Source: Bdellovibrionales bacterium (GTDB lineage Bacteria > Bdellovibrionota > Bdellovibrionia > Bdellovibrionales > JAUICD01). Taken from it: 64,000 bases of DNA. Below, in pieces: positions 1-59,731 of this stretch. The translations under genes and the position numbers were made by a program. Within the stretch, counting starts at the first letter, position 1, and each line of letters begins with the position of its first letter. Under the pieces are notes generated by a model. The model had not been told where the DNA came from. It saw nothing but the letters and a program-made list of their open reading frames with translations, and did not search any database. The stretch lies in NCBI GenBank assembly GCA_965197425.1, contig CBDANC010000015.1:10704-74703 (forward strand). The letters are read 5' to 3'.

Positions 1-1434
1 CTTGTTTAAGTTCTCTGTTATTGTTTGAGTTACTTCAAAGAGATGTTTGTGATCAAATTGTCTTTTGTTTAAAAATTTGGGCAAAGCAATTGAAGCTAGA
101 TTACATACAGCGACCTCATCTTTTGAAGTGTATTCCATTATTTCTGTGCATAGATTGCTTGATTTTATTGTCCCTAGATTTTTTTGATTAGATTTCATGT
201 TAACACTATCTTTATAGAGCATATAAGGAGTGCCTGTTTCTATTTGTGATTCTAAAATTTTAAACCAAATCTCTCTAGCAGGAATTGTGTTTCTAGCTTT
301 TCCCTCTTTTTCATATTTTGTGTATAGAGTTTCAAACTCTTCTCCGTAGCAGTCACTTAAACCAGGAGCTTCATTTGGACAAAATAACGACCACTGACCA
401 CTTTCCTTTACCCTTTTCATAAATAGATCAGGTGTCCATAGAGCATAAAATAGATCTCTTGCACGATTTTCTTCTTTACCATGGTTTTTTCTTAAATCTA
501 GAAAGTCAAAAATATCTGCATGCCAAGGTTCGATATAAATTGCAAAAGCACCCTTTCTTTTGCCCCCACCTTGATCCACGTATCTAGCGGTATCATTGTA
601 AACTCTCAACATTGGAACAATTCCATTAGAAACACCATTTGTTCCGCTGATATAACTTCCCTTAGCTCTTATGTTGTGAACGCTAAGCCCGATCCCTCCT
701 GCAGACTGAGATATAAGAGCGCATCTTCTAAGAGTCTCATATATCCCGTCAATACTATCATCTGTCATAGATAACAGAAAACAAGATGACAACTGTGGTT
801 TTGGAGTTCCTGAATTAAATAGGGTTGGAGAAGCGTGTGTAAACCATTTCTCAGAAAGAAGGTTATAAGTTTTTATAGCAGCCTCTATATCTTCTTTGTG
901 TATACCAACGGCAACCCTCATCAACATATGCTGAGGTCGCTCCGCAACCTTATTGTCTATTTTTAATAAATAAGATCTCTCAAGTGTTTTAAAACCAAAG
1001 TAGTCATACTCAAAATCACGGCTATAAATTATAGATGAATCCAAAATGTCTTTGTTATCCATAATTATTTCGTAGACATCATCAGACACAAGAGGGGCTT
1101 TTTGTCCATTTTTAGGGTTTACATACTTATACAGGCGGGTCATGGTTTTTGAAAAAGATTTTTCTGTGTTTTTGTGTAAGTTGGATACCGCAATTCTAGC
1201 TGCTAAAATAGCAAAGTCAGGGTGAGTAGTGGCCAAATAAGCTGCTGTTTCTGCAGCTAAGTTATCTAGCTCGCTGGTAGATACACCATCATAGACCCCA
1301 ACAATTACCTTCTTAGCCACCTCTGTTGGATCTACATAGTCACTGTCTAGAGAGTAACATAGCTTTCTTATCCTAGAGGTAATTTTATCAAACTTAACAA
1401 CTTCTTTTTTGCCACTTCTCTTTACTACATACAT
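1..1434 (-). CDS. nrdA: Ribonucleoside-diphosphate reductase class Ia large (alpha) subunit, N-terminal 478 codons; gene continues past the window start
   Basis: Absent from the ORF track because there is no stop in the window. Manual minus-strand translation from ATG 1434-1432 gives [30 protein letters not shown]...[27 protein letters not shown] (ATP-cone). Further in it gives [54 protein letters not shown], closely resembling eukaryote-type R1. 1434 nt is exactly 478 codons. Confidence 0.9.
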
Positions 1435-1687
1435 ACTAATGCTACCTTAATTAACAATTATAAATTTGATATTTGAGGTTTAAGTTTCAATAAAAATATT
1501 TCCTTTCTTTAGAATCCAAGTATTTCTTAAGAAAGATAAAACCAGCTCTTATCAAATCTGTTTTAATGTGAAGGACTAAAACAGCTCCTACGATAATCCC
1601 ACAGCAGATAAGACAACAAGCAAAGCCAAACCGTATCACGACCAAATATGTGCAAAAGTCTAGCTAGTAAGTTTTAAACGACAAACG

Positions 1688-1722
1688 GGTCTTTTGTATA
1701 GGTTTTACGCTTATAAAAAATC
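1688..1722 (-). promoter_or_regulatory. Conserved bipartite motif upstream of nrdA, shared with the nrdB upstream region
   Basis: GGGTCTTTTGTATAG + GTTTTACGCTTATAAAAAA here; compare 3324-3380. Confidence 0.35.
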
Positions 1723-1916
1723 AAAAATTTGTAGTAGTAAAAAACAAAATAATTTTAGTGAGTTATAGATGCTCAATAATCACCATAATTCCTCGCAATA
1801 TAAAATATAAAAACAAATTGAATAAACCCCGTACTCAATGTAGTGTCCCGACCGACTTTATATTGATCGCAACTAGAGCTTACCTTTACTAAAGTTCTAT
1901 TTTCGTGGTCGCTGAC

Positions 1917-2180
1917 CGGAACGTAATTCACCCGCCAAAATGGAACAAGTCCCATTGTTTGCTGTTCATTAGCCTCACCTTAAGTTACAGGATCGGTATC
2001 GTGTTCAGAGCTGGGCAACCACTCGGATAAAAAAAGTGAACAAGTCCATTTGTTTTTATTATCGCTCGGAAGACCTTAAGCTACAGGATCAACATCTTGT
2101 TCTAGTGCTGGTCAGGCACTCGGCCAAAAAAAAAGCAACAAAGTCACTTTGTTTTTGGCCTCATTAACCTCACCTTTGGT
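1917..2180 (+). repeat. Modular intergenic repeat, locus 1: leader (1917-1981) plus two body-less A-C units (1982-2077, 2078-2176)
   Basis: Direct reading. It shares ACGTAATTCACC, (T/C)ACAGGATCGG.ATCGTGT.CAGAGCTGGGCAACCACTCGG.TAAAAAA, GAACAAGTCCA.TTGTTTTT and the tails ..CGGAAGACCTT / ..CCTCACCTT with loci 2-5. It ends 2-6 nt from the nrdB stop (2182-2184). Confidence 0.85.
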
Positions 2181-4615: not shown

Positions 4616-5170
4616 TTGTCTTTTAAGGAAGTTGAAAATGGGACACTTAAACTTAGAGCAAATAACAGAGACTTAAAGTTGATAACAGGGTTTGGTTCTA
4701 AACACTTTTTGGTACTTGTTCTCTCATCAGCTTTTTTGATTTCTTGTGAAACCACACAAAAATCCGCAGACTCAACTAGAGATTCCTTGCCTTCTAGAGG
4801 AATTTCCAGCGTTAATTCCTTCGTAGATAGCAGAGGACACTCTCCCTTGCACGAAGCAACCAGAAGTGGTGATGTAAGATTAATTACTAGCTTAGTGCAA
4901 TCAGGAGGAGATATAAACATTGGAGATGCAATGGATGAAACTCCATTACATCTGGCGGCCAGAACAGGTCAAACAGCAGCGGTTAGAACTTTGGTGCGGT
5001 TGGGCGCTACGGTAAGCACAAAAGACAGGAAAGGACATACCCCTTTGCATGAAGTAGCTAGAAATGGTGATTCAGAAGCTGTTCGTTTTTTGGTAGGAGC
5101 TGGTGCAAATATAAATGAAATAGAGAAAACGAAACTGCACTTCACTTATCAGCTAAAAACAACCAACTAG
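4616..5170 (+). CDS. Ankyrin-repeat lipoprotein, 3' end truncated by a frameshift; true start probably the TTG at 4679
   Basis: Leader KHFLVLVLSSAFLISC (lipobox-like LISC). It is followed by three ankyrin repeats (GHSPLHEATRSGDVRLITSLVQSGGDIN, DETPLHLAARTGQTAAVRTLVRLGATVS, GHTPLHEVARNGDSEAVRFLVGAGANIN). Confidence 0.65.
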   Translation: MSFKEVENGTLKLRANNRDLKLITGFGSKHFLVLVLSSAFLISCETTQKSADSTRDSLPSRGISSVNSFVDSRGHSPLHEATRSGDVRLITSLVQSGGDINIGDAMDETPLHLAARTGQTAAVRTLVRLGATVSTKDRKGHTPLHEVARNGDSEAVRFLVGAGANINEIEKTKLHFTYQLKTTN

Positions 5171-11297: not shown

Positions 11298-12677
11298 CTA
11301 TATTTGTGTTTCGCCGCCAAGCCCGGCAGTGTTTTCAATATCTCTTTGCCTAGCTTTAGCTCTCTTTCTAATAGCCACAAGCAAGACAAGTGTTATCAAA
11401 ACAACCCCTGCTGCAAGTATAGTTATTTTATCTCCCCCTCCAGGAAGCTTGTCCATAACCCCACCGCTGGTGGCAGCAGTGCCTTGGTTATCATCAGTAT
11501 CTGCTAAGGCAGGCGGAAGTGGAGGAGGTGGAGGAGGCACATCACCCATAATATCAGAAGGAGGAGGAGGAGGTATGTCACCCATCATATCAGGAGGAGG
11601 AGGTGGAGGAGGAGGTATGTCACCCATCATATCAGGAGGAGGTGGAGGAGGCATGTCACCCATCATATCAGGAGGAGGTGAGGGAGGCATATCGCCCATC
11701 ATGTCGGAAGGAGGAGGTGGCATATCTGTTGGTGTACCACCTTCAGGTCCAACAGGCATGTCAGAAGCAGGTGGAGCTACAGCAACTGCTCCCGATGGCC
11801 AATATGCAATTTCTCTGTCTTGTGTTAATGTCCATTTTTCAGATTCTTCCAAATCTATATTTTTAGCCCAAAGCTCTTTCCAAGAATTTCTGTTGCCCAA
11901 AATATTTTCAGCAATATCTCTTATATTTTCGCCCCTCTTTGCAGAGTAAACACTAGGAGGGAGATTTGAATCTTCATAGTAAGACAAAAGCCTTCCTCTA
12001 TCATCTGGCCTGTTTGGCGAGTTGTAGTAAACCTTATCACCCACAGAAATCTTATTAGCTAAATTTGGATTTATCTCTAAAAGTTCAGATTCTCTATCAG
12101 GTGTTCTATATATCTTTGAACTTATAGAACTCAAAGAGTCTCCATCCCTTACAATGTAAACAGCGTTGACTAAACGAGAAGCCTTATCATACGGCTCTGA
12201 CTTTATTTTCTTTACAGGTATAAATGTTCTTGTGCCTTCCTCAACATCATTGTATCCGGGCTCTGTATAGGCAAGATCATCTCCTCCATCTACTTCTTCA
12301 TATCCTTCATCAAAACTTTCGTCAGAAGGAGCTTCTGCAGTGGTTCCATCGCCGGACCCATCTTCATCAAAAAAATCATCTCCCCCATCAGCTGCTTCGT
12401 CAGCCGATACATCATAGTCTTCTCCCTCAAAACCTTCCTCATCTAAAGACATATCATTTGCATCAGCCATTTCATCCATCGAAGGTTCTTCGAAATCTTC
12501 ATCTAAGGGATCGTCTGGGAATTCTTCATCTAGGGCTCCGTCATCAAAATCTTCAAGACCAGAGTCACCTGCCATTGCTTCCGAACTATCTAAATCACTG
12601 GCCCCATCATCTTCCTTTTTGTTGGAAGTACAGCCAATAAAACTAAACAATAGTAAAATTAAAAATAAATGTCTCAA
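11298..12677 (-). CDS. LysM-domain lipoprotein with an acidic linker, proline-rich PPPPDMMGD tandem repeats and a C-terminal TM anchor (FimV-like organisation)
   Basis: Leader MRHLFLILLLFSFIGC (lipobox), then a ~130-aa D/E-rich region and LysM-like YIVRDGDSLSSISSKIY...INPNLANKISVGDKVYY. Next come five PPPP(S/P)D(M/I)MGD repeats, then a hydrophobic ITILAAGVVLITLVLLVAI segment followed by RKRAK. Confidence 0.75.
   Translation of the reverse strand: MRHLFLILLLFSFIGCTSNKKEDDGASDLDSSEAMAGDSGLEDFDDGALDEEFPDDPLDEDFEEPSMDEMADANDMSLDEEGFEGEDYDVSADEAADGGDDFFDEDGSGDGTTAEAPSDESFDEGYEEVDGGDDLAYTEPGYNDVEEGTRTFIPVKKIKSEPYDKASRLVNAVYIVRDGDSLSSISSKIYRTPDRESELLEINPNLANKISVGDKVYYNSPNRPDDRGRLLSYYEDSNLPPSVYSAKRGENIRDIAENILGNRNSWKELWAKNIDLEESEKWTLTQDREIAYWPSGAVAVAPPASDMPVGPEGGTPTDMPPPPSDMMGDMPPSPPPDMMGDMPPPPPPDMMGDIPPPPPPPPDMMGDIPPPPPSDIMGDVPPPPPPLPPALADTDDNQGTAATSGGVMDKLPGGGDKITILAAGVVLITLVLLVAIRKRAKARQRDIENTAGLGGETQI
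11513..11725 (-). repeat. In-frame tandem repeat (period 36-42 nt, 5 units) encoding PPPP(P/S)D(M/I)MGD(M/I/V)
   Basis: The plus strand shows five recurrences of AT(G/A)TCACCCATCATATCAGGAGGAGG... inside the LysM lipoprotein gene. Confidence 0.9.
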
Positions 12678-20441: not shown

Positions 20442-22744
20442 TTAAAACGGTGCTCCTAAAGAAAATTGAAACATCGAACCCTCCATTTCACATTCTCCGT
20501 CTGAAGATTCCCTTTTTATACATTTTCTATTTACAGGAAATCCCCACTCAAATCTCAAAGGACCCATAGGGGAAAACCATCTAAATCCAACTCCAAAATT
20601 AGCCCTAAGCTTGCTTAGTTCTAATACATCTTCTGCCATACCAATATCATAAAATACCACTCCAAAAATTTTAGTAGCATCTACCAGAGGAAACTGCAAC
20701 TCCAGATTATAATATGCCTGCTTTGTACCACCCTTTACTACTTCTACTACTTCCTCTCCTGTACTACTTGTAACAGTTCTTCCTATATCAAACCACCCAA
20801 AACCACGCAATGTATTTACTCCGCCAAGCCTGTACAAATCGTTAAAAGGAATCTCTCGTTCACCATAGGGAAACAACATAGAATATGTAAAATTATTTCT
20901 TACAACCAATTCACGCCATATAGGTTTATAAAATCTTGCGTTAAACTCAGTTTCTACAAATCTTTTATCTCCCCCGAGGCCCGCTATCTCTGCAGAAACA
21001 CTTGCAAGGAAACCATCACTCGGCATCCATCTATCATTTCTTTTGTCATAGTCTAAAGAAAATGTCATGGAACTTAAAATGCCTTCTGCAGAATCTACAT
21101 TAAAAACATCACTTCTAAAATCATCGCGGGATTCAATTGATGTATTTTCATATAGATATTTTATAAATCCATACAGGTAAGGAGCTACGGGATGGCCTAA
21201 TCTAACAGCTCCACCCTTTCTAAAATCTCTGTACTGCTCCTGAACTATATAGTTTGTACTATAAACATCTAAGCCCGCAGTCCATCTAGTATCTAAAAAA
21301 TATGGATCAGTAAAACTTAAAGTATAAAATTTCTCTTGTCCAGATAAATTAGTACTTAAACCTAATGTTTGACCTCTTCCAAGTAAATTTGTTTTTTCAA
21401 TTCTTCCATTAAAAATAAAACCACTATAAGAACCATAACCAGCACCAACTTGAATGCTACCAGTGCTTCTTTCTTCAACCGATATATCATAATTAACTGT
21501 ATTTGGACTTTCAGCATCCACTTTTTGTTGAAAAGTTACATTCTCAAAAAATCCAAGTCTTCTAATATCATTCAGAGACTTTCTTTTATTAGTCTCATTA
21601 TATAGTTCTCCTTCAATTATACTCATCTCTCTTCTTATAACTTTATCCCTAGTGCTATGATTTCCTACAATATCAAACTTTCCAAAGTAAACTTTTTCAC
21701 CTGTATCTATTGAAAAATCTAAATCAACTACCTTGTTTTCTCGATCTAACTTAGTATTTGGTATGATGTTTACAAATGCATAACCCAAATCACCATACAT
21801 TGCCTGCAATCTCTCTAGGTCACTTTGTAAAACATCGTAGGCAAAGACAGATCCATTGGATGTTTTTATTTTTTGTAAATGCTCATCTGCTGTGAATAAT
21901 AAATCTCCACTAAAGCCGATTTGTCCGACAGTATGTTGATCTCCTTCCTCAATCTCTATGTTAATAATTATATCCCGTTTGTTAGGAGAAATAAAAATTT
22001 GAGATCCAACAACCTTTGCATTAATATATCCTTCATTTAGATATAAATATTTTATTACCTGAAGATCTCTTTCAAAACCCACCTCACTATACCGACCACC
22101 GCCAGAGAAGAAGCTAAAAAAAGTCTTCTCTTTGTTCACCAAAGCTGACTTTAATGCTTCATCAGTTATAGCTGTATTTCCCTGTATATTTATTTTCTTT
22201 ATTTTTACTTTTTGATTTTCATTTATTTTAAAAACTAGTCTGACTCGTTTACTGTCTTTATTATTCTGATTGTTTTCCTCTTTGATCTCATAAATTACAT
22301 TGGCTAGAAAAAAACCTTAGACTCATACAAGTCAGTAATACTATTTATAGAAGTGTTTACCTTGGCAACATCTAAAAAATCATCTTGTTTAAAATCTAAA
22401 GCTTCAAACAGTTCATCAGACTTTATTTTTTTATTTTTTTCGAAAACTATTTCAGATATTGAAGGTCTTTCTTCCACTACATATCTTAAAACATCGTTTT
22501 CTCTGTAGATCTCTATGTCATAAAAATGCCCCATTTCAAAAATTCTTTCTAAGTCTTTTAAAACTTGATCTTTTGAATAAGGTTTGCCGGAAGAACTTTC
22601 AATTTTATCAAGTATTGCTTCTGTACCTATTTTTTTATTGCCCTCAACAACGATGTCTTTAATGAGAGCGGCATAGGAAATTTTATGCATCATAAAAAGC
22701 AACAAAAAAAACACTCTAAATATAGAAGATCTCAAGGCAAGCAT
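20442..22744 (-). CDS. bamA: Outer-membrane protein assembly factor BamA, interrupted by a 1-nt frameshift in a T7 run (plus-strand A7 at 22308-22314)
   Basis: Two track ORFs: 22304-22744 (signal peptide plus POTRA1-2) and 20442-22142 (POTRA plus 16-strand barrel, ending ...FQFSLGAPF). The 161-nt gap translates without stops in the downstream frame as GFFLANVIYEIKEENNQNNKDSKRVRLVFKINENQKVKIKKINIQGNTAITDEALKSAL, joining both parts. Confidence 0.85.
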
Positions 22745-29769: not shown

Positions 29770-30489
29770 TTATAGGTTGGACTTAGTGTTTGAAAAAAGA
29801 GGTCTAAGCGAATAGAACCCAAAAATAACAAGCATAATGCTAATAAAGGTAGATATCGGATAGTGCCCTCTAAAATCTCCCCTCAAACTTTCTAATAAGA
29901 TCCTAGATATGCCATATAAAATCAAATATACAAAAAATCTTTTTTTATAAAATAACCCATGTCTTTCTAAATAAAGAATCATTGCTGTTATCAAAAACCC
30001 TAAAAAGGAAGAATATAGTTGTGTAGGATGAGATGTAATGCCACTTAATCCAATAGACTTAAAAAAATTAGTATTTTCTCCAAAGCAACATCCTGCTAAA
30101 AAACATCCAATCCTGCCCAAGGCATAGCCCAGAGGTATAACAGGTGCAAGTAAATCTAAAAAATCCGAGATATTTTGTTTCTTAAAAGTTAAAAATAAAA
30201 AACCAAATAAAAATGCAAATATAAATCCCCCATAAAACACAAAACCACCCTGATGCAATTTAATAATGTTAATGGGGTTTTCTATATAATACTTAGGATA
30301 CTCTACTATTACATGAAATAACCTTCCGCCCACAAGCCCAGAGATCATTAAAATTAAACATAAATCCAAGGCATCTTTTAAGTTTTGCTTTTTTGATCGA
30401 AGATAAACCCATACAATGCATATACAAAAAGACAAGGACATCACAAACAAATAAGTAGATAAATGTAATGGACTTAAAGTAGGCGCCAA
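29770..30489 (-). CDS. Prolipoprotein diacylglyceryl transferase paralogue (short form)
   Basis: 239-aa polytopic ORF with Lgt motifs (GGRLFHV, GGFVFYGGFI, GRIGCFLAGCCFG, HPTQLYSS). Confidence 0.75.
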   Translation of the reverse strand: MAPTLSPLHLSTYLFVMSLSFCICIVWVYLRSKKQNLKDALDLCLILMISGLVGGRLFHVIVEYPKYYIENPINIIKLHQGGFVFYGGFIFAFLFGFLFLTFKKQNISDFLDLLAPVIPLGYALGRIGCFLAGCCFGENTNFFKSIGLSGITSHPTQLYSSFLGFLITAMILYLERHGLFYKKRFFVYLILYGISRILLESLRGDFRGHYPISTFISIMLVIFGFYSLRPLFSNTKSNL

Positions 30490-30490
30490 T

Positions 30491-31333
30491 TTATGGTATG
30501 GACTCCTTTATTGGATTTTTTATTCTAACATACAAAAGTATTATGCCAAATATAATCATTATAGAACAAAGTATTTGACCCATACTAAAATATTCTGCAA
30601 AAAATCCAAGTTGACTATCAGGTTGTCTAAAAAATTCCATAATAAATCTAAACATTCCATATAAAATTAAATATGAAGTACACATTACACCTGTTCTCTT
30701 CCATACACCGCTTCGATTGTTTTTTGGTGCAAAACCTAAACCTATCTCCCTTTTTTCTATCAGAAGTAGAATAAAAAAGATTAAAAGTCCTTCTGTTAGA
30801 GATTGATATATTTGAGAAGGATGTCTTGGCATGTTATCTATTGCAGGGAAAATTACAGCCCACGGAACTTCTGTGACCCGACCTACAAGTTCTCCATTAG
30901 CAAAATTTCCCAATCTTCCCCAAAAAACCCCAAAAGCTGCCGCAAGCACTATAGTATCCATTATATGAAAAAAACCAACTTTTAATTTCTTTGAAGCTAC
31001 TATACAAGCAACAGTAAACCCAATAGCAGCTCCATGATAAGATAAACCCCCTTGCCAAATAGCAAACACACTTAAAGGAGATTCAATATAAGCCCAGTAG
31101 TCATACACAGTTACATAAAACAACCTGGCTCCCAAGATCATGCCAATCATTAAATAGGTTATAAGTAATTGAGATGCTTCAGGGTTTAATGCAAATCTTT
31201 TTTTTTTCCACCTTCTTACAAAAATTAGATAACCTACGAAAAACCCAAGTACATACATAAGCCCGTACCATCTTATTTGGATAACGCCCAACTTTAAAAT
31301 AGCAGGATCTATATCATGTATATAGTATTGCAT
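30491..31333 (-). CDS. lgt: Prolipoprotein diacylglyceryl transferase
   Basis: 280-aa ORF with IRWYGLMYVLGF, GARLFYV, WQGGLSYHGAAIG, GRLGNFANGEL.GR and HPSQIYQS. Confidence 0.88.
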   Translation of the reverse strand: MQYYIHDIDPAILKLGVIQIRWYGLMYVLGFFVGYLIFVRRWKKKRFALNPEASQLLITYLMIGMILGARLFYVTVYDYWAYIESPLSVFAIWQGGLSYHGAAIGFTVACIVASKKLKVGFFHIMDTIVLAAAFGVFWGRLGNFANGELVGRVTEVPWAVIFPAIDNMPRHPSQIYQSLTEGLLIFFILLLIEKREIGLGFAPKNNRSGVWKRTGVMCTSYLILYGMFRFIMEFFRQPDSQLGFFAEYFSMGQILCSIMIIFGIILLYVRIKNPIKESIP

Positions 31334-39586: not shown

Positions 39587-41164
39587 CTACTTGTTTTTCG
39601 AGATAGCAGCTTTAATTAAACCATCAAACAAAGGGTGTGGGAGGAAGGGTTTTGACTTAAACTCTGGGTGAAACTGAACTCCAATAAACCAGGGATGGTC
39701 TTTTATTTCAATCATTTCAATTAAATTTTTTTCTTTGTTTATCCCAGACAAAATCAATCCATGTTTTTTTAAAACAGATGCATATTTATTGTTTACTTCA
39801 TATCTGTGCCTATGCCGCTCTTTAATCTTTGTTTTCTTATAGAGTCTTTTGGCCAAAGTATTGTTAGATAAATGGCAAGTATATGATCCCAATCTCATTG
39901 TTCCACCCTTATTTATTTTTTTCTTTTGATCTTTCATAGTATGAATAATATGAGTACCAGTTTTTGAAAACTCACTACTAGTTGCCGTTTTAATGCCACA
40001 TATGTTTTTTGCATATTCAATTATACAAAGTTGCATTCCAAGACAAATGCCTAGGAATGGAATTTTATTTTCCCTAGCATATTTAGCTGCTGCAATTTTT
40101 CCTTTAATACCTCTGTTACCAAAACCTCCTGGAATTATAACGGCGTCTATATTTTTTAAACTATTTTCTTTAAATTTCTCTGAGTCTATGTATCTAATTT
40201 CAATTCTTACCCTATTTTTTATACCACTGTGAATTATTGCTTCATGTAGAGATTTGTAACTTTCCTTTAAATCCACATACTTACCTATAAATGCTATTTT
40301 TACTTTTTGTGTTGCTTTTTTCAGATCTAGTATTACGTTGTTCCATTTAGATATGTTGGGCTTTTTACTTTTCAGCTTCAGTTTTTTAACTATGTTTGTG
40401 TCTAGTGATTCTTTATGCATAAAAATAGGAAGAGTATAGATAGATTCTACATCTGGTGATGAAACAATTTTGTCTATATCCACACTGCATTGGAGAGATA
40501 TTTTTTCCTTAGCACTAGAAGTAATTATATCTTTGCTTCTACAAACCAAAAAATCTGGTTGCAATCCAAGGCTTCTCAACTCTCTTACAGAGTGTTGAGT
40601 GGGTTTTGTTTTGATCTCACCCGCAACATCAATTTTTGGGAGCAAGGTAACATGAACGATAACAGAATTTCCTGCACCTACACTACTTCTGACCTGCCGT
40701 ATGGTCTCTAAAAATGGCAACCCCTCAATATCTCCTACGGTTCCTCCTATCTCTACCAAGGTAACTTCTTTGTTTTTTGACACTTTAAAAATACGTCTCT
40801 TTATTTCGTCTGTTATGTGCGGGATGACTTGTACAGTGCCTCCCAAATATTTGCCTTGTCTTTCATTTTGTATAACTGTCTCATATATCTGCCCGGTGCT
40901 AACAGAGTTTTGATAAGACATAGTACAATTTGTAAATCTCTCGTAATGCCCTAAATCCAGATCTGTTTCTGCACCATCCTCAGTAACATATACTTCACCA
41001 TGTTGAAATGGATTCATCGTTCCAGGGTCTACATTTATGTAAGGGTCAAATTTTATTATAGAGATTTTATGACCTCTTTCCTCAAGAAGTGATGCAATTG
41101 ATGCCGTCGTAAGACCTTTCCCTACAGACGATGCCACGCCCCCTGTTATAAAAATATATTTCAA
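39587..41164 (-). CDS. pyrG: CTP synthase
   Basis: KYIFITGGVASSVGKG..., with a glutamine amidotransferase domain (GICLGMQ, HRHRYE). I prefer the TTG start at 41164: SD TAGGAGTGAG lies 4 nt upstream and it gives the canonical MKYIFITGG. The track ORF extends to 41224 through repeat-derived sequence. Confidence 0.88.
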   Translation of the reverse strand: MKYIFITGGVASSVGKGLTTASIASLLEERGHKISIIKFDPYINVDPGTMNPFQHGEVYVTEDGAETDLDLGHYERFTNCTMSYQNSVSTGQIYETVIQNERQGKYLGGTVQVIPHITDEIKRRIFKVSKNKEVTLVEIGGTVGDIEGLPFLETIRQVRSSVGAGNSVIVHVTLLPKIDVAGEIKTKPTQHSVRELRSLGLQPDFLVCRSKDIITSSAKEKISLQCSVDIDKIVSSPDVESIYTLPIFMHKESLDTNIVKKLKLKSKKPNISKWNNVILDLKKATQKVKIAFIGKYVDLKESYKSLHEAIIHSGIKNRVRIEIRYIDSEKFKENSLKNIDAVIIPGGFGNRGIKGKIAAAKYARENKIPFLGICLGMQLCIIEYAKNICGIKTATSSEFSKTGTHIIHTMKDQKKKINKGGTMRLGSYTCHLSNNTLAKRLYKKTKIKERHRHRYEVNNKYASVLKKHGLILSGINKEKNLIEMIEIKDHPWFIGVQFHPEFKSKPFLPHPLFDGLIKAAISKNK

Positions 41165-41180
41165 ATTCTCACTCCTATTA

Positions 41181-41496
41181 GTCTTTGGTCTCATTAAACT
41201 TACTTTTAGCAAATGGATCGGCATCGTGTCCAGAGCTGGGCAACCATTCAGCTAAAAAAGTTTCTTTGCTCAGCGACGTGCTTTGCACACCGCTACGCCA
41301 ATCAACTTTTATTAGCCTAATTAGGAAGACCTTTGGCAAATGGATCGGCATCGTGTCCAGAGCTGGGCAACCTCTCAGTAAAAAAACCGACCTTGGGGAG
41401 GTTGTTTCAATTGGAAAACATAAAGATTTATCTCGTGAGCCAATTGAACCAAAGAAGGCAAAGCCTCCTTATTTTTTACCTCGTTAACCTCACCTT
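41181..41496 (+). repeat. Modular intergenic repeat, locus 2: degenerate tail (41181-41206), unit 2a (to 41333, alternative body), unit 2b (41334-41496, A-B-C)
   Basis: AAATGGATCGGCATCGTGTCCAGAGCTGGGCAACC occurs twice (41211-, 41338-). The body ...CCGACCTTGGGGAGGTTGTTTCAATTGGAAAACATAAAGATTTATCTCGTGAGCCAATTGAACCAAAG is present. The tail CCTCGTTAACCTCACCTTT overlaps the engB 3' end. Confidence 0.9.
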
Positions 41497-42021
41497 TAGC
41501 TTTTTTTTTACTTCTAAAATACCCTTTTTGGTTTTTGAAGAACACACAAAAACATTATTAATTCCAGACACACTCTTTATTTTATCCATTTTTTTATTTG
41601 TATCTTTTAATTTATCAGCTTTACTTAGTATTATATAAATGGGAATCGACTTGTTTTTAGCTAATTTTATCAACATAATTTCATCTTTTGTTAAATCTCT
41701 TCGTATATCCATCAAAAGAAGCATTAGCCTTAGCTCAGATCTTGTTTGTAGATAATTTTCTACCATATTCTTCCATTTATTTATCTCATCAAAACTTCTT
41801 TTGGCATAACCATATCCTGGCATATCTACTAAAATATAATCTTTCATATCAAAAAAGTTTAAAAGATTTGTTTTGCCAGGTATTTTAGACACTCTGGCAA
41901 CTTTGGCACCCGATAATGAATTTAAAAAGGAAGACTTGCCAGCGTTAGAACGACCTACCAGGGCAACTTCAGGCATTGAATGTACAGGATAGTCATAGTC
42001 ACAACTTTTTATAAACATCAA
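41476..42021 (-). CDS. engB: Ribosome-biogenesis GTPase EngB/YsxC/YihA
   Basis: 181-aa ORF with G1 GRSNAGKSS and G3 DMPGYG; I did not locate the G4 motif. The last 7 codons plus the stop lie inside repeat locus 2. Confidence 0.85.
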   Translation of the reverse strand: MMFIKSCDYDYPVHSMPEVALVGRSNAGKSSFLNSLSGAKVARVSKIPGKTNLLNFFDMKDYILVDMPGYGYAKRSFDEINKWKNMVENYLQTRSELRLMLLLMDIRRDLTKDEIMLIKLAKNKSIPIYIILSKADKLKDTNKKMDKIKSVSGINNVFVCSSKTKKGILEVKKKLKVRLTR

Positions 42022-46051: not shown

Positions 46052-46198
46052 TTAAAACCTTAGACCGCTAATTTTTTGATAAGCTTTGCCCCTCAGCATC
46101 TTATTACTTTCATATTATTCTCTAGACTTATGTATGATTAAAAAATTCATATGGTTAATTGTCTAAGAGTTTTTTTAATATGTGTCGATATTTATATT

Positions 46199-47542
46199 AT
46201 GGCATTAAATACAAAATTGGATCTGAGTAAAAACACTATTGTGTATGGCAATTGCTCTGATGAAGATGGTCAGGGTTGGCTTAATTTAATATCCGAAAAA
46301 TCTGTTGATTTGATTTATATAGATCCTCCATTTTTTTCAAACAGGGATTATAAAGTTGTGTGGGGCAATGGTTACGAAGTTCGCTCTTTTGGAGATCGAT
46401 TTAAAGGTGGAATTGATCATTACATTAATTGGATGAAACCAAAAATTTTAGAATCAAAAAGAGTATTAAATGATACAGGATCTATTTTTTTACATTGTGA
46501 CTGGCATGCAAGTCATAGACTTAGGTGTTTATTAGATGAAGTATTTGGAGAAAAAAGTTTTATAAATGAAATAATATGGTTTTATCCCAATGGTGGAGGA
46601 AGGAGTAAATCTTGGCTTAACAAAAAACATGACACAATTTTTTGGTACGCTAAAGACAAAAACAAATTTAAATATAATTGGAAAGAAATAGCTTTAAGTC
46701 GAAATCAAGATCAAAAAACTTTTGGAGGGTATTTTAAAACAGATAATAAGGGAACTTATCAAGAAGTAAGATCAAACGGTAAGGTATATAAGTACTATGT
46801 TGACGAGCCAAAAAATAATGATGATGTTTGGTTTTTAAATATTATTTCTCAAAGAGATACAACAGAGAGAATTGGATATAGAACTCAAAAACCTGAAGCT
46901 TTGATAAAAAGGATTGTAGAGTGTTCTACTGATAAAAATGATGTAGTGTTAGATTTTTTTGGTGGGGGCGGTACTACTGCAAAGGTTTGTTCTGATTTAG
47001 ATAGGAGATTTATCACAGGTGATGTATCTCCTATTGCTGTTAGAGTAACAGCAGATCGGTTGAGTGATAATGGATATAGAGACTATGAAATAAAAGGATT
47101 GCCTTCTACAAAAAAAGAATACCATAGTATGCACAAAAACAAGTTTGTTCAAATAATATGCGACCTAATGGGCTGGGATAGGAATTTAAAAAAATCATTA
47201 AACAATACTTTTGATGGATTTGCTGATGAGGGTAATATACCTGTTTTTATTCAAAATCAAAGTGAGAAAACTTCTATACCCGATATTAAAAAATTCTTAA
47301 AGCTTTTAGCTAAACATAAAAAAGGAATCTTTGTTTCTTGGGATTTTTCCAAAGAAGCGTCAGAATATGTGTATAGTTTAATACAACAAAAAATAACACT
47401 ACTTGCAGTTAAGGAAATTTTAAACGGCTTATTAATTTCTGATGAATTATCTAAAAAGCCAAAGAAATTATATGATGCTGATACAAAAAAGATTTCTTGG
47501 GAAGACAAGTCTGTGCATGGATTAAAGCAAAAAACAGCATAA
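46199..47542 (+). CDS. Beta-class (motif IV before motif I) N6-adenine/N4-cytosine DNA methyltransferase fused to an Mrr-like C-terminal domain
   Basis: DLIYIDPPFFSN (motif IV) precedes VLDFFGGGGTT (motif I). The C-terminal ~110 aa follow the Mrr_cat pattern (FVQIICDLMGW..FDGFAD..VFIQNQSEK..IPDIKKFL..KGIFVSWDFSKEASEYV). The likely start is MALNTKLDL at 46199; the track ORF starts at 46151. Confidence 0.8.
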   Translation: MALNTKLDLSKNTIVYGNCSDEDGQGWLNLISEKSVDLIYIDPPFFSNRDYKVVWGNGYEVRSFGDRFKGGIDHYINWMKPKILESKRVLNDTGSIFLHCDWHASHRLRCLLDEVFGEKSFINEIIWFYPNGGGRSKSWLNKKHDTIFWYAKDKNKFKYNWKEIALSRNQDQKTFGGYFKTDNKGTYQEVRSNGKVYKYYVDEPKNNDDVWFLNIISQRDTTERIGYRTQKPEALIKRIVECSTDKNDVVLDFFGGGGTTAKVCSDLDRRFITGDVSPIAVRVTADRLSDNGYRDYEIKGLPSTKKEYHSMHKNKFVQIICDLMGWDRNLKKSLNNTFDGFADEGNIPVFIQNQSEKTSIPDIKKFLKLLAKHKKGIFVSWDFSKEASEYVYSLIQQKITLLAVKEILNGLLISDELSKKPKKLYDADTKKISWEDKSVHGLKQKTA

Positions 47543-52653: not shown

Positions 52654-52724
52654 CTCCTGTCATATGTATTCTATGATGCGCTTACTGATTATAGCAGTCC
52701 AGTTGAAAGTAACTGTGTCAAAGT

Positions 52725-52931
52725 GTTTGTTTAGCTTCTTTATTTTTTGCCTCGTTCGGAAGACCTTAGAGTAACAGGATCGGCATCGTGTTGCAGAGCT
52801 GGGCAACCACTTGGATAAAAAACCGACTGCAAAGAGGTTCATCCAATTGGAAAATATAAAGGTTTATCCCGTAAGCCAATTGAACTAAAGAGAACAAGTC
52901 CACTTGTTTTTATCCTCGTTCGGAAGACCTT
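52725..52931 (+). repeat. Modular intergenic repeat, locus 3: orphan tail (52725-52767) plus one complete A-B-C unit (52768-52931)
   Basis: The unit is flanked by direct copies of CCTCGTTCGGAAGACCTTAG (52750-52769 and 52914-52933). It contains all three modules and overlaps the miaA 3' end. Confidence 0.9.
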
Positions 52932-53839
52932 AGGGTTAATTCTATTTTGTTCATAATGCCACGAATATTTTCATTGTGTTTTACTTTTAGTATTTTATAT
53001 TGCTCGCTCTCATATCTGTTAAACCATGTGTTTTGTTTTTTAACCAACTTCATAGTTGATTTGACTATTTCTTCTTCTAATTCTTGTTTACTAAGCGAGC
53101 CTTCAATAAATTTTATGGTTTCTTTATAACCTACACTGTTCATAGGAGACCAGTTTTTTAATCCTTTGTCTAATAAACCCTGCACCTCTTCTATTAGGCC
53201 ATTATCTAACATTTGCTTTGTTCGCAAGGTTACATTTTTTTTAATTTCTGATTTATCCATTTCTATTCTTAAAAAAACATATGGATAGGGGAATTGTTTT
53301 TTTACATAAGTTCTTTTTATTTCAGTAATAGTTCGATCTTGAAGGCGCATTATCGATGCTGCCCTTAATATTCTATATTTATCATTTTGGTTTATTGTTG
53401 CTGCATATTCTGGATCTTTTTTTTTAATTTCTTCATAAATAAAGGCAAGCCCTTTGTTTTTTAAATCATGATCTAATATATTTTTTAATTCTATAGGTGT
53501 TTTGGGGAAGTTATACATTTCAGATATAAGCGCATTTATATAAAATCCACTTCCTCCTACTATAAATGCATACTCTGTTTTTATTTTAGATAACTTGCTA
53601 AGGCATAATTTTTTAAATTCTCCTGCAGTAAACTCATGTCCTTCACTCAATATATCAAATAGATGATGTGGAGTTTTATTTAAGTCCTTTTTTTTTGGTT
53701 TAGATGATCCAATGTTTACAGATTTAAAAAATTGTATACTGTCAGAATTTATAATCTCTGCATCATATATCTCTGCCAGCCTTAATGCTAAGGCTGATTT
53801 TCCTACTGCTGTAGGGCCTATTATAAATACTGCCTTCAT
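52910..53839 (-). CDS. miaA: tRNA dimethylallyltransferase
   Basis: 309-aa ORF with GPTAVGKSALAL and YRILRA.... The last 7 codons plus the stop (LRSSERG*) lie inside repeat locus 3. Confidence 0.9.
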   Translation of the reverse strand: MKAVFIIGPTAVGKSALALRLAEIYDAEIINSDSIQFFKSVNIGSSKPKKKDLNKTPHHLFDILSEGHEFTAGEFKKLCLSKLSKIKTEYAFIVGGSGFYINALISEMYNFPKTPIELKNILDHDLKNKGLAFIYEEIKKKDPEYAATINQNDKYRILRAASIMRLQDRTITEIKRTYVKKQFPYPYVFLRIEMDKSEIKKNVTLRTKQMLDNGLIEEVQGLLDKGLKNWSPMNSVGYKETIKFIEGSLSKQELEEEIVKSTMKLVKKQNTWFNRYESEQYKILKVKHNENIRGIMNKIELTLRSSERG

Positions 53840-57604: not shown

Positions 57605-57818
57605 AAACACCTCCTTAACAAAGGAACCTTTCACATAAAAAACTGCAATTTAGCATGTAAGAAAGTTTGTCAAGTTGAGATCTATTAAGTCAATATCCGC
57701 CAAGCTTAGAACATAGAACGTTAGGTGATGCAAAAAGCAGCCCTTCACAATCTTCTATTTGGTTTAGGTTCTACAGTGTAGTGTTGTTATTGTCTAGATA
57801 TTTATAAAAATTTCTCAT

Positions 57819-57980
57819 AAAGGTCTTCCGAATGAAGCTAAAAACAAGTGGACTTGTTCACTTTGGTTCAATTGGCTCACGGGATAAATCTTTATATTAT
57901 CCAATTGAAATAACCTCCCTGCGGTCGGTTTTTTAGCTGAGTGGTTGCCCAGCACTAGAACATGATACTGATCCCGTCTC
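57819..57980 (-). repeat. Modular intergenic repeat, locus 4: one complete A-B-C unit in inverted orientation
   Basis: The reverse complement reads ..GGATCAGTATCATGTTCTAGTGCTGGGCAACCACTCAGCTAAAAAACCGACCGCAGGGAGGTTATTTCAATTGGATAATATAAAGATTTATCCCGTGAGCCAATTGAACCAAAGTGAACAAGTCCACTTGTTTTTAGCTTCATTCGGAAGACCTT. Confidence 0.9.
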
Positions 57981-57994
57981 ATAAATTATAAAAA

Positions 57995-59251: not shown

Positions 59252-59397
59252 AAAGCTCCAATATATTTTTGTTAATTCCCTAAGTAATAAAATAAATATT
59301 GCGAAAGCTGAATAACAAGTAAGTTTTTAGAAGTCTAGTACAAACAATGAAGATTGTGAAATGGGTTGAGGGGATTGAGTTTTAAAGTGGCTGTGTC

Positions 59398-59730
59398 AAA
59401 ACGTAATTCACCTGGCAAAAGTCGGCAGAGCCAACTTATTGCCAGGTTCAATCAGTGCTGGGGCTCACCTTTAGTTACGGGATCGGCACCGTGTCCACCA
59501 GGAAACAGCCACTCGGCCAAAAAGGAAAGCAAAACTTCCCTTATTTTTTGCTTCGTTCGGAAGCTTTTTAGTAACAGGATCGGCATCTTGTTCCAGAGCT
59601 GGGCAACCATTTAGCTAAAAAACCGACCGCAGGGAGGTTATTTCAATTGGAAAGTATAAGATTTATCCCGTGAGCCAATTGAACCAAAGTGAACAAATCC
59701 ACTTGTTTTTAGCTTCATTCGGAAGACCTT
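59398..59730 (+). repeat. Modular intergenic repeat, locus 5: leader (59398-59472), divergent A-C unit (59473-59569), complete A-B-C unit (59570-59730)
   Basis: Unit 5b is nearly identical to the locus 4 unit. The leader shares AACGTAATTCACC with locus 1 and contains an 8-bp hairpin CCTGGCAA..TTGCCAGG. It ends 1 nt before the kinase stop codon (59732-59734). Confidence 0.9.
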
Positions 59731-59731
59731 G

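Follow-up and report, generated by a model that had tools for sequence, protein, structure and literature searches.

In the 64-kb stretch of DNA that we analysed (hereafter the window), engB, which encodes a GTPase, and pyrG, which encodes CTP synthase, both lie on the minus strand and are separated by a spacer of 311 nt (41165–41475). Almost all of this spacer is made up of repeated modules, which form a head-to-tail array of two units and a truncated third. Read along the gene strand from engB to pyrG, the features are the following:

41476–42021, minus strand: engB (yihA/ysxC) coding sequence, a TIGR03598 equivalog (E = 6e-54)
41479–41499, minus strand: T' module of type 1 (CTAAAGGTGAGGTTAACGAGG), the gene-proximal edge of unit 1, encoding LKVRLTR; the same module stands after nrdB (2157–2177)
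41476–41478, minus strand: engB stop codon TAA, directly after T' type 1
41451–41475, minus strand: H', a variable hairpin slot (AAGGAGGC-TTT-GCCTTCTT, then TTTGG; about −6.2 kcal/mol)
41387–41450, minus strand: B', an optional module that contains an inverted repeat (TTCAATTGG...CCAATTGAA) and is found in four of the nine window units
41335–41386, minus strand: A' module (T-run, GGTTGCCCAGCTCTGGACACGATGCCGATCC, linker TTGCCAAA), the distal end of unit 1 (nhmmer E = 1.3e-16)
41314–41334, minus strand: T' module of type 2 (AAAGGTCTTCCTAATTAGGCT), the start of unit 2, identified by its sequence
41260–41313, minus strand: variable hairpin slot of unit 2 (GCGGTGTGC-AAA-GCACGTCGC), read from the sequence
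41208–41259, minus strand: A' module of unit 2 (nhmmer E = 1.1e-18), holding a spurious ATG at 41222–41224 (from the ORF list)
41181–41207, minus strand: truncated unit 3, a degenerate T' (AAAAGTAAGTTTAATGAGA) plus CCAAAGAC, holding a second spurious ATG at 41192–41194, in frame with pyrG
41162–41176, minus strand: native pyrG ribosome-binding site AGGAG (41172–41176) and TTG start codon (41162–41164); the TTG is present in the relatives L001–L004
39587–41164, minus strand: pyrG, 525 aa from TTG, with PF06418 and GATase matches

The same modules recur elsewhere in the window, giving five loci in all (1920–2177, 41181–41499 [W2], 52701–52934, 57813–57985 and 59383–59731). Together they hold nine A' copies (nhmmer E-values of 1e-13 to 1e-18), 12 T' copies of two types and four B' copies, and we found further copies in the close relatives L001, L002/L005 and L008. 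Besides the engB–pyrG array, the window contains these loci:

1920–2177, minus strand: array W1, downstream of nrdB, with two complete units and a partial one; its first unit begins 7 nt past the nrdB stop codon
52701–52934, minus strand: array W3 between miaA and yicC, in which T' type 2 encodes the end and stop codon of MiaA (LRSSERG*) in a frame unlike that at engB
57813–57985, plus strand: W4, a single unit in the opposite orientation (57822–57976, 155 nt, T'-H'-B'-A') flanked by 9-bp direct repeats
59383–59731, minus strand: array W5, downstream of a Ser/Thr kinase gene; its first unit begins 3 nt past the stop codon

On the gene strand, a unit consists of T', a hairpin with a T-run, the optional 64-nt B', A' (…GGTTGCCCAGCTCTGGACACGATGCCGATCC) and a linker of 8–9 nt that leads into the next T'. 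T' is about 20 nt long and reads AAAGGT-GAGGTTAAYGAGG or AAAGGT-CTTCCGAAYGAGG, the pattern GTTCAATTGGCTYACGRGATAAA matches all four B' copies, and the hairpin slot is AT-rich and variable in sequence yet always forms a hairpin. Units measure 79–210 nt, are present in nine copies in the 64 kb and, within arrays, all share one orientation, strictly head-to-tail. Translation of T' plus hairpin in each frame gave a stop after 0, 7–11 or 21–39 codons, depending on the frame. Two more short modules were confined to the far ends of arrays: W1 and W5 share GGTGAATTACGTT, and W3 and W5 share TTTGACACAGnnACTTT (window 1920–1932, 59400–59412, 59387–59401 and 52701–52723); the second holds TTGACA, with no properly spaced −10 box after it.

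In either orientation, whole units folded no better than shuffled sequences (z-scores of +0.6 to −1.7) and contained only short local hairpins, and we dropped a structured-RNA reading on this ground. Local alignment of the first 35 nt with the reverse complement of the last 35 nt detected no terminal inverted repeats in 11 units (scores of 3–7; shuffled controls averaged about 5.2, with maxima of 8–10), and the conserved blocks A' and T' are not palindromes. Rfam returned no match in the whole window at gathering thresholds and only sub-threshold noise in the spacer. A coding reading of A' (WLPSSGHDADP) was rejected on account of single-base indels between copies and stops. Likewise, a hairpin picked out by eye near the end of A' (AACAnGAT-GCCG-ATCCTGTT) always contained a mismatch and showed no compensatory changes. 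We scanned public sequences with five element patterns in all: GTDB representative genomes (two patterns) and JGI metagenomes (two patterns) gave no matches, and in IMG/VR (three patterns) two had none and the third had two chance matches in GC-rich coding sequence. The repeat family appears to be undescribed so far and somewhat unusual; the absence of inverted repeats and the head-to-tail arrays are what set it apart.

Past the array after nrdB, about 500 nt of the nrdB–nrdA spacer are non-coding and conserved between the window (1400–1920) and L008 (1700–2293), and Rfam at gathering thresholds gave no riboswitch or leader in that spacer.

The first-pass annotation had taken the last engB codons to be the repeat tail itself, and this reading held. 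On the minus strand, 41499–41476 (CTA AAG GTG AGG TTA ACG AGG TAA) is T' read as LKVRLTR*, with T' modules present at all five window loci, and the junction in the protein lies at ...GILEVKKK|LKVRLTR*. The same sequence had been said to stand, non-coding, after nrdB; indeed, the 18-mer AAGGTGAGGTTAAYGAGG has exact copies at 2159–2176, 7 nt past the nrdB stop, and at 41479–41496. When up to three mismatches were allowed, it had three matches against 0.11 expected by chance, a number that none of 100 shuffles reached.

EngB scored 182.5 bits against TIGR03598 (cut-off 124.45), with residues 9–175 aligned to profile positions 11–185 of 186. Residue 175, at which the YihA/YsxC profile reaches position 185, is the first of the residues that the repeat encodes (175–181), and all of these fall at the end of the profile or past it. 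Because the profile ends at the junction, the exchange is limited to the unconserved tip of EngB. The gene itself probably starts at ATG 42018, which gives 180 aa and matches the public call P0363.

The frame of the tail is set by a run of nine A residues (A9, 41500–41508) directly before T'. With eight, EngB would end ...KKS*, at a TAA (in CTAAAGG) within the repeat edge, and the EngB stop codon is therefore repeat-derived under A9 and A8 alike. The run is probably real, as L001, which was assembled independently, also carries A9 before T'. Elsewhere in the window, bamA (POTRA, Omp85; 20442–22744, minus strand) is split into ORFs of 146 and 566 aa about 160 nt apart. The break lies near 22304–22320, and the upstream ORF ends just past a T8 homopolymer; either an indel that the assembly introduced in the homopolymer produced the split, or the gene is genuinely frameshifted or a pseudogene; this calls for caution over homopolymer-dependent frames such as that set by the engB A9.

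Homologues of this EngB form a small uncultivated clade, and the best-matching named bacteria are Bdellovibrio-like, at about 50% identity in EngB and MiaA and 76% in NrdB. The engB–pyrG locus and the EngB C-terminus compare as follows:

Window: element present; EngB ends ...GILEVKKK|LKVRLTR*
L001 (EngB 96% identical): element present in another arrangement, 440-nt spacer; ...KKKASSK*
L002 (EngB 77% identical): element present; ...GIVE|LKVRLARLETR*
L003 (EngB 77% identical): element absent, 20-nt spacer; ...KKSIRFK*
L004 (1.6-Mb circular contig; EngB 69% identical): element absent, 65-nt spacer; ...KKSMNDALTKSTA*

The junction of T' with engB lies four codons earlier in L002, with the frame unchanged, and 33 nt of the element are translated there. 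L003 has 20 nt, with AGGAG, between the engB stop and TTG-AAA-TAT-ATT. The right-hand junction of the array (…CCAAARAC|TAATAGGAG) is common to the window and L001. EngB homology therefore stops at the repeat junction, at a position that varies by lineage. Orthologues from genomes without the element had been proposed as a check on the LKVRLTR end, and those in L003 and L004 end otherwise. The native 3' end of engB has thus given way to a repeat-derived tail. Of the claim that the element had taken the place of the native 3' end in an essential GTPase gene, the replacement stands, given the differing C-termini of relatives, but its likely consequence was overstated, since the segment lies beyond the conserved profile; the effect on the EngB and PyrG proteins is probably small.

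The native engB end of L003 (GCATTAGGTTTAAGTAG) is faintly similar to T' and may be an old scar of the element. As a separate observation, the EngB end of L001 (GCG AGT AGC AAA TAA; L001 6140–6200) can be derived from the T'–hairpin junction of the window by a deletion of about 16 nt, a weak similarity; if this origin were true, the ASSK* of L001 would also be repeat-derived and not native.

The engB tail is one of several such gene ends. MiaA (52910–53839) ends ...IELT|LRSSERG*, with 20 nt of T' type 2 translated, and a gene for a transketolase C-terminal domain in L005 ends ...TLKVFR* in T'. Gene ends formed by the repeat edge thus appear to be general for the element (engB, miaA and the L005 transketolase gene); the last seven residues of EngB and the last seven of MiaA are both repeat-derived. 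No more than about 20 nt separate the element from the upstream gene's stop codon at any of the six independent loci, even where the spacer is at least 150 nt long.

L006 and L007 lack the element between miaA and yicC, which overlap there by 4 nt. The miaA–yicC spacer of the window measures 256 nt and contains the repeat array, and L005 lacks yicC altogether. The longest yicC ORF in the window runs from ATG 52653 on the minus strand (MHMNSM...); its true start is probably ATG 52647, because the orthologues in L006 and L007 start MNSM....

At the other end of the engB–pyrG array, three in-frame starts compete for pyrG: ATG 41224 (545 aa, the longest ORF), ATG 41194 (535 aa) and TTG 41164 (525 aa). 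In PyrG read from TTG, PF06418 covers residues 2–264 (profile positions 1–265), so the domain begins at residue 2. AGGAG stands 7 nt upstream of this TTG; AGGAG-N7-TTG is kept in L001 and L003, and in L004 the TTG follows another spacer, one that contains GAGG. In L003 and L004, in-frame stops 2–11 codons upstream of TTG exclude longer forms of PyrG. Downstream of TTG, 59 of 60 nt match between the window and L001, with many differences upstream, and PyrG counted from TTG is identical at 98.9% to that of L001, 89.5% to that of L003 and 81.1% to that of L004. These observations point to TTG 41164 as the start of pyrG and to ATGs 41194 and 41224 as spurious, repeat-derived starts.

ATG 41194 belongs to the truncated T'. 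The degenerate tail beside pyrG had been described as 22/27 identical to the copy at the nrdB locus, and we obtained the same figure for 41181–41207 against 2151–2177. Elsewhere the full module reads ATG AGG CCA AAA ACA AAG TGA (MRPKTK*); the T' copy at pyrG stands without the stop-bearing hairpin. The first-pass annotation had proposed that a repeat ATG inflates the pyrG ORF by 10–20 codons, in agreement with the lengths of 535 and 545 aa against 525 aa, and it had judged the upstream ATGs spurious, as the start of PF06418 and the in-frame stops in L003 and L004 also indicate. Its further suggestion that the repeat mimics a Shine–Dalgarno sequence plus ATG was right for the ATG but not for the Shine–Dalgarno part: because the copy reads AAAAGTAAG and not AAGGTGAGG, it is degenerate and offers an ATG with no good ribosome-binding site. 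Nor is the combination a conserved feature of T', as the ATG occurs in about 7 of 19 T' copies. For annotation, PyrG should start at TTG 41164 (525 aa). Gene callers are demonstrably misled by the repeat ATG: the public call for PyrG in L001 has 535 aa and starts at the ATG of T'.

Evidence for movement came from W4, whose flanks carry a perfect direct repeat (9/9; TCTCATAAA) at 57813–57821 and 57977–57985. Once the unit and one repeat copy were removed, the site was colinear with empty sites in L005 and L006. From this duplication of a 9-bp target, together with the two relatives' empty sites, we conclude that the element is, or was, mobile. Copy number also differs at the nrdB locus, where the window has one whole 96-nt unit more than L008 (NrdB 98% identical). 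The breakpoint lies inside A', and the A' of L008 is a chimera of the two A' copies in the window, which points to unequal recombination in A' rather than transposition.

The 51 window ORFs scanned against Pfam (64 kb) included no transposase, integrase or RAYT, and all those that matched a Pfam family were housekeeping genes; tRNA and tmRNA genes were likewise not found in the window. Several other features deserve mention. A gene for an N6/N4 DNA methyltransferase (46151–47542, plus strand) lies between DEAD-box helicase and PilZ/GYF genes; it is also present in L001 and absent from the same position in L003, L005 and L007, and has the look of an orphan methylase gene gained by lineage-specific insertion. 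An ankyrin-repeat protein, of a kind unusual in free-living bacteria, is encoded at 4616–5170 (plus strand); the closest complete relative is a 1.6-Mb circular contig. An ORF of 459 aa with no Pfam match (11298–12677, minus strand) contains tandem repeats of 36–42 nt (GGAGGAGGAGG...CATGTCACCCATCAT) at 11521–11720, which, read on the coding strand, would give a proline-rich repeat protein. Two lgt paralogues stand in tandem at 29770–31333 (minus strand).

Taken together, the spacer array is very probably a small, non-coding, non-autonomous mobile repeat that has clipped and re-closed engB and that misleads ORF calls for pyrG. Beyond the repeat membership, the junctions, the empty sites of relatives, the one 9-bp duplication and the pyrG start, all of which are shown, we infer an order of events and a neutral tail. 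Ancestrally, the engB stop would have been followed by about 20 nt with AGGAG and then by the pyrG TTG. Insertion of the element, followed by gain and loss of units and small deletions, would have brought T' within the last codons of engB. Because T' plus hairpin has stops in every frame, a gene clipped in this way would quickly be closed again, here after a short foreign tail, and this tail would have been tolerated because the conserved GTPase domain ends before it. Next to pyrG, the truncated T', without the stop-bearing hairpin, would let its ATG run in frame into pyrG, the real start of which would remain the TTG with its native AGGAG. Several points weigh against this explanation: an A9 homopolymer, known from a metagenome assembly, sets the frame of the EngB tail; the 64-kb window yielded no mobilising gene; a clean target duplication is seen at one insertion only, the difference from L008 being better accounted for by recombination; the linkers are alike across loci; and the engB end of L003 bears a faint likeness to T'.

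A different reading would make the arrays 3'-end cassettes recruited by the host, in which T', hairpin and T-run serve as a terminator or as a stabiliser of mRNA 3' ends and are selected at stop codons. Placement would then follow the manner of REP/BIME or SPRITE repeats, and the coding overlap would be a by-product. Liang, Rudd and Deutscher are said to have found in 2015 that many REPs lie just after stop codons. A hairpin does follow every T', the hairpin and T-run being kept while the sequence varies, and T' faces the upstream stop in five of six loci, in addition to the close placement at all six described above. However, the hairpins are weak (−1.6 to −6.5 kcal/mol), and that at 41451–41475 failed a terminator scan as too weak and AT-rich. 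In the three arrays scanned, we found neither a consensus terminator on the gene strand nor a consensus promoter for the downstream gene; the one terminator-like match, in W2, was on the opposite strand. Moreover, two arrays separate genes that in relatives lie side by side or overlap (engB–pyrG, 20 nt apart; miaA–yicC, with its 4-nt overlap). Both pairs are probably co-transcribed, and efficient termination between engB and pyrG would be harmful, as it would silence pyrG. Weak hairpins, the lack of gene-strand terminators and promoters in the scanned arrays and the co-transcribed pairs all favour a selfish passenger tolerated at gene ends, and leave a terminator or 3'-stabiliser role conceivable but poorly supported; we rate recruitment by the host as rather improbable.

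The means of integration might also differ from cut-and-paste transposition. Linkers and left flanks are alike across loci (TTGCTAAA, TAACTTAA, TTACTCTAA, TAACCCTAA and AACCTTAAA, roughly T-W-R-C-Y-W-A-A), and the flanking 8–9-mers of units other than W4 match at 5–8 positions. In this small sample, such linkers could represent a preferred target or a recombination core, not ordinary target duplications. Under site-specific recombination, a small circle with an A'–linker–T' junction would recombine at a TWRCYWAA-like core of 8–9 nt, duplicating the core at both junctions; reintegration into resident cores would then build head-to-tail arrays, and TAA-containing stop-codon contexts would be the natural targets. 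Such a process would suit the absence of terminal inverted repeats, the strictly head-to-tail arrays, the likeness of flanking 8–9-mers within and between loci (the first four sequences above and TCTCATAAA) and the identity of the two T' copies around the W3 unit (20/20 nt). Against it, no recombinase was found in the window, the copies are too few for a statistical definition of the core, the duplicated 9-mer at W4 fits the proposed core only partly, and the sole unit-length polymorphism breaks in A', not in the linker. We regard site-specific recombination as quite unlikely. The broader idea of a new kind of non-autonomous element, one without inverted repeats that duplicates a TWRCYWAA-like core (often containing or abutting TAA), re-targets such cores to form arrays and routinely re-terminates the genes it clips, strikes us as unlikely also; a recombinase, an IS110-like enzyme or a reverse transcriptase may be candidates for mobilising it.

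Finally, LKVRLTR might be the native C-terminus of EngB, T' elsewhere being derived from the engB 3' end or a chance lookalike; the tail presumably does make the length of EngB past its conserved glycine equal to that of Bacillus subtilis YsxC (the alignment that we made ends before the tail), but T' occurs at 5/5 window loci and in relatives, in two sequence types and three reading frames, its matches far exceed the chance expectation given above, C-termini are unrelated in relatives without the element at engB–pyrG, and L001, at 96% identity, diverges exactly at the junction, so that to judge from these sequences this reading is effectively refuted.

A selfish mobile repeat of this type has counterparts among known systems. 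With the REP/BIME repeats of enterobacteria and pseudomonads, which are associated with RAYT transposases, it shares mosaic intergenic arrays of short repeats, but BIMEs alternate the orientation of palindromes of 20–40 nt, whereas the units here measure 90–155 nt and follow one another strictly head-to-tail (PMC2817692). Alternating short palindromes are absent from our arrays, as is a RAYT (Y1 HUH) among the 51 window ORFs scanned. Pneumococcal BOX and SPRITE repeats resemble the element in their modular build with an optional internal module (boxA–boxB(n)–boxC), terminator-like hairpins and intergenic clustering or nesting (PMC10969869). They belong to another host phylum and show no sequence similarity to it, and the terminator-like features are weak here; the ends of BOX are partly complementary, whereas those of our units are unrelated.

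Classical MITEs (Correia/NEMIS, ERIC and RUP) are likewise small, non-coding and multi-copy, with target duplication and insertion polymorphism, and all of these, including empty sites, were seen for the element. The differences are that no terminal inverted repeats were detected here and that the duplication is 9 bp. Correia elements duplicate a TA dinucleotide.

The first-pass annotation had likened the engB tail to what Rickettsia palindromic elements (RPEs) do. RPEs are palindromic sequences of about 100–150 bp that are inserted in frame inside genes and fully translated (PMC10969869). The analogy holds loosely: in both cases, housekeeping genes of a bacterium with a small genome would gain codons from a selfish repeat, with no obvious destruction of their proteins. 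However, our units are neither palindromic overall nor folded into one long hairpin and have no terminal inverted repeats. Unlike in RPEs, only 21–33 nt of one edge are translated (21 nt at engB in the window, 20 nt at miaA and 33 nt at engB in L002), at the very 3' end, where the element supplies the stop codon and terminates the ORF.

Closer to our case, by analogy, are the 3'-end overlaps of Coxiella burnetii QMITEs. Where QMITE1 and QMITE2 meet functional genes, the overlap is with the 3' end (1–50 bp), and in the Dugway strain a QMITE supplies the C-terminal residues of enhC, with the stop codon immediately downstream; the authors ascribed such overlaps to tolerance of C-terminal change (PMC5896051). 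Like the element here, QMITEs are small non-autonomous repeats, and they affect gene ends in the same way as the element does in engB, in miaA and in the transketolase gene of L005. The two differ in that QMITEs have terminal inverted repeats and stable stems, whereas the element has neither and is modular and arranged in head-to-tail arrays, and we saw no sequence relationship between them. The repeat family appears to be new, and the phenomenon is already known from MITE-type repeats in Coxiella. Here, a compact genome (about 1.6 Mb) of an uncultivated bacterium related to Bdellovibrionota tolerates selfish DNA between housekeeping genes that are adjacent or, in relatives, overlap, and the element itself closes the ORF that it clips and leaves the downstream ribosome-binding site intact.
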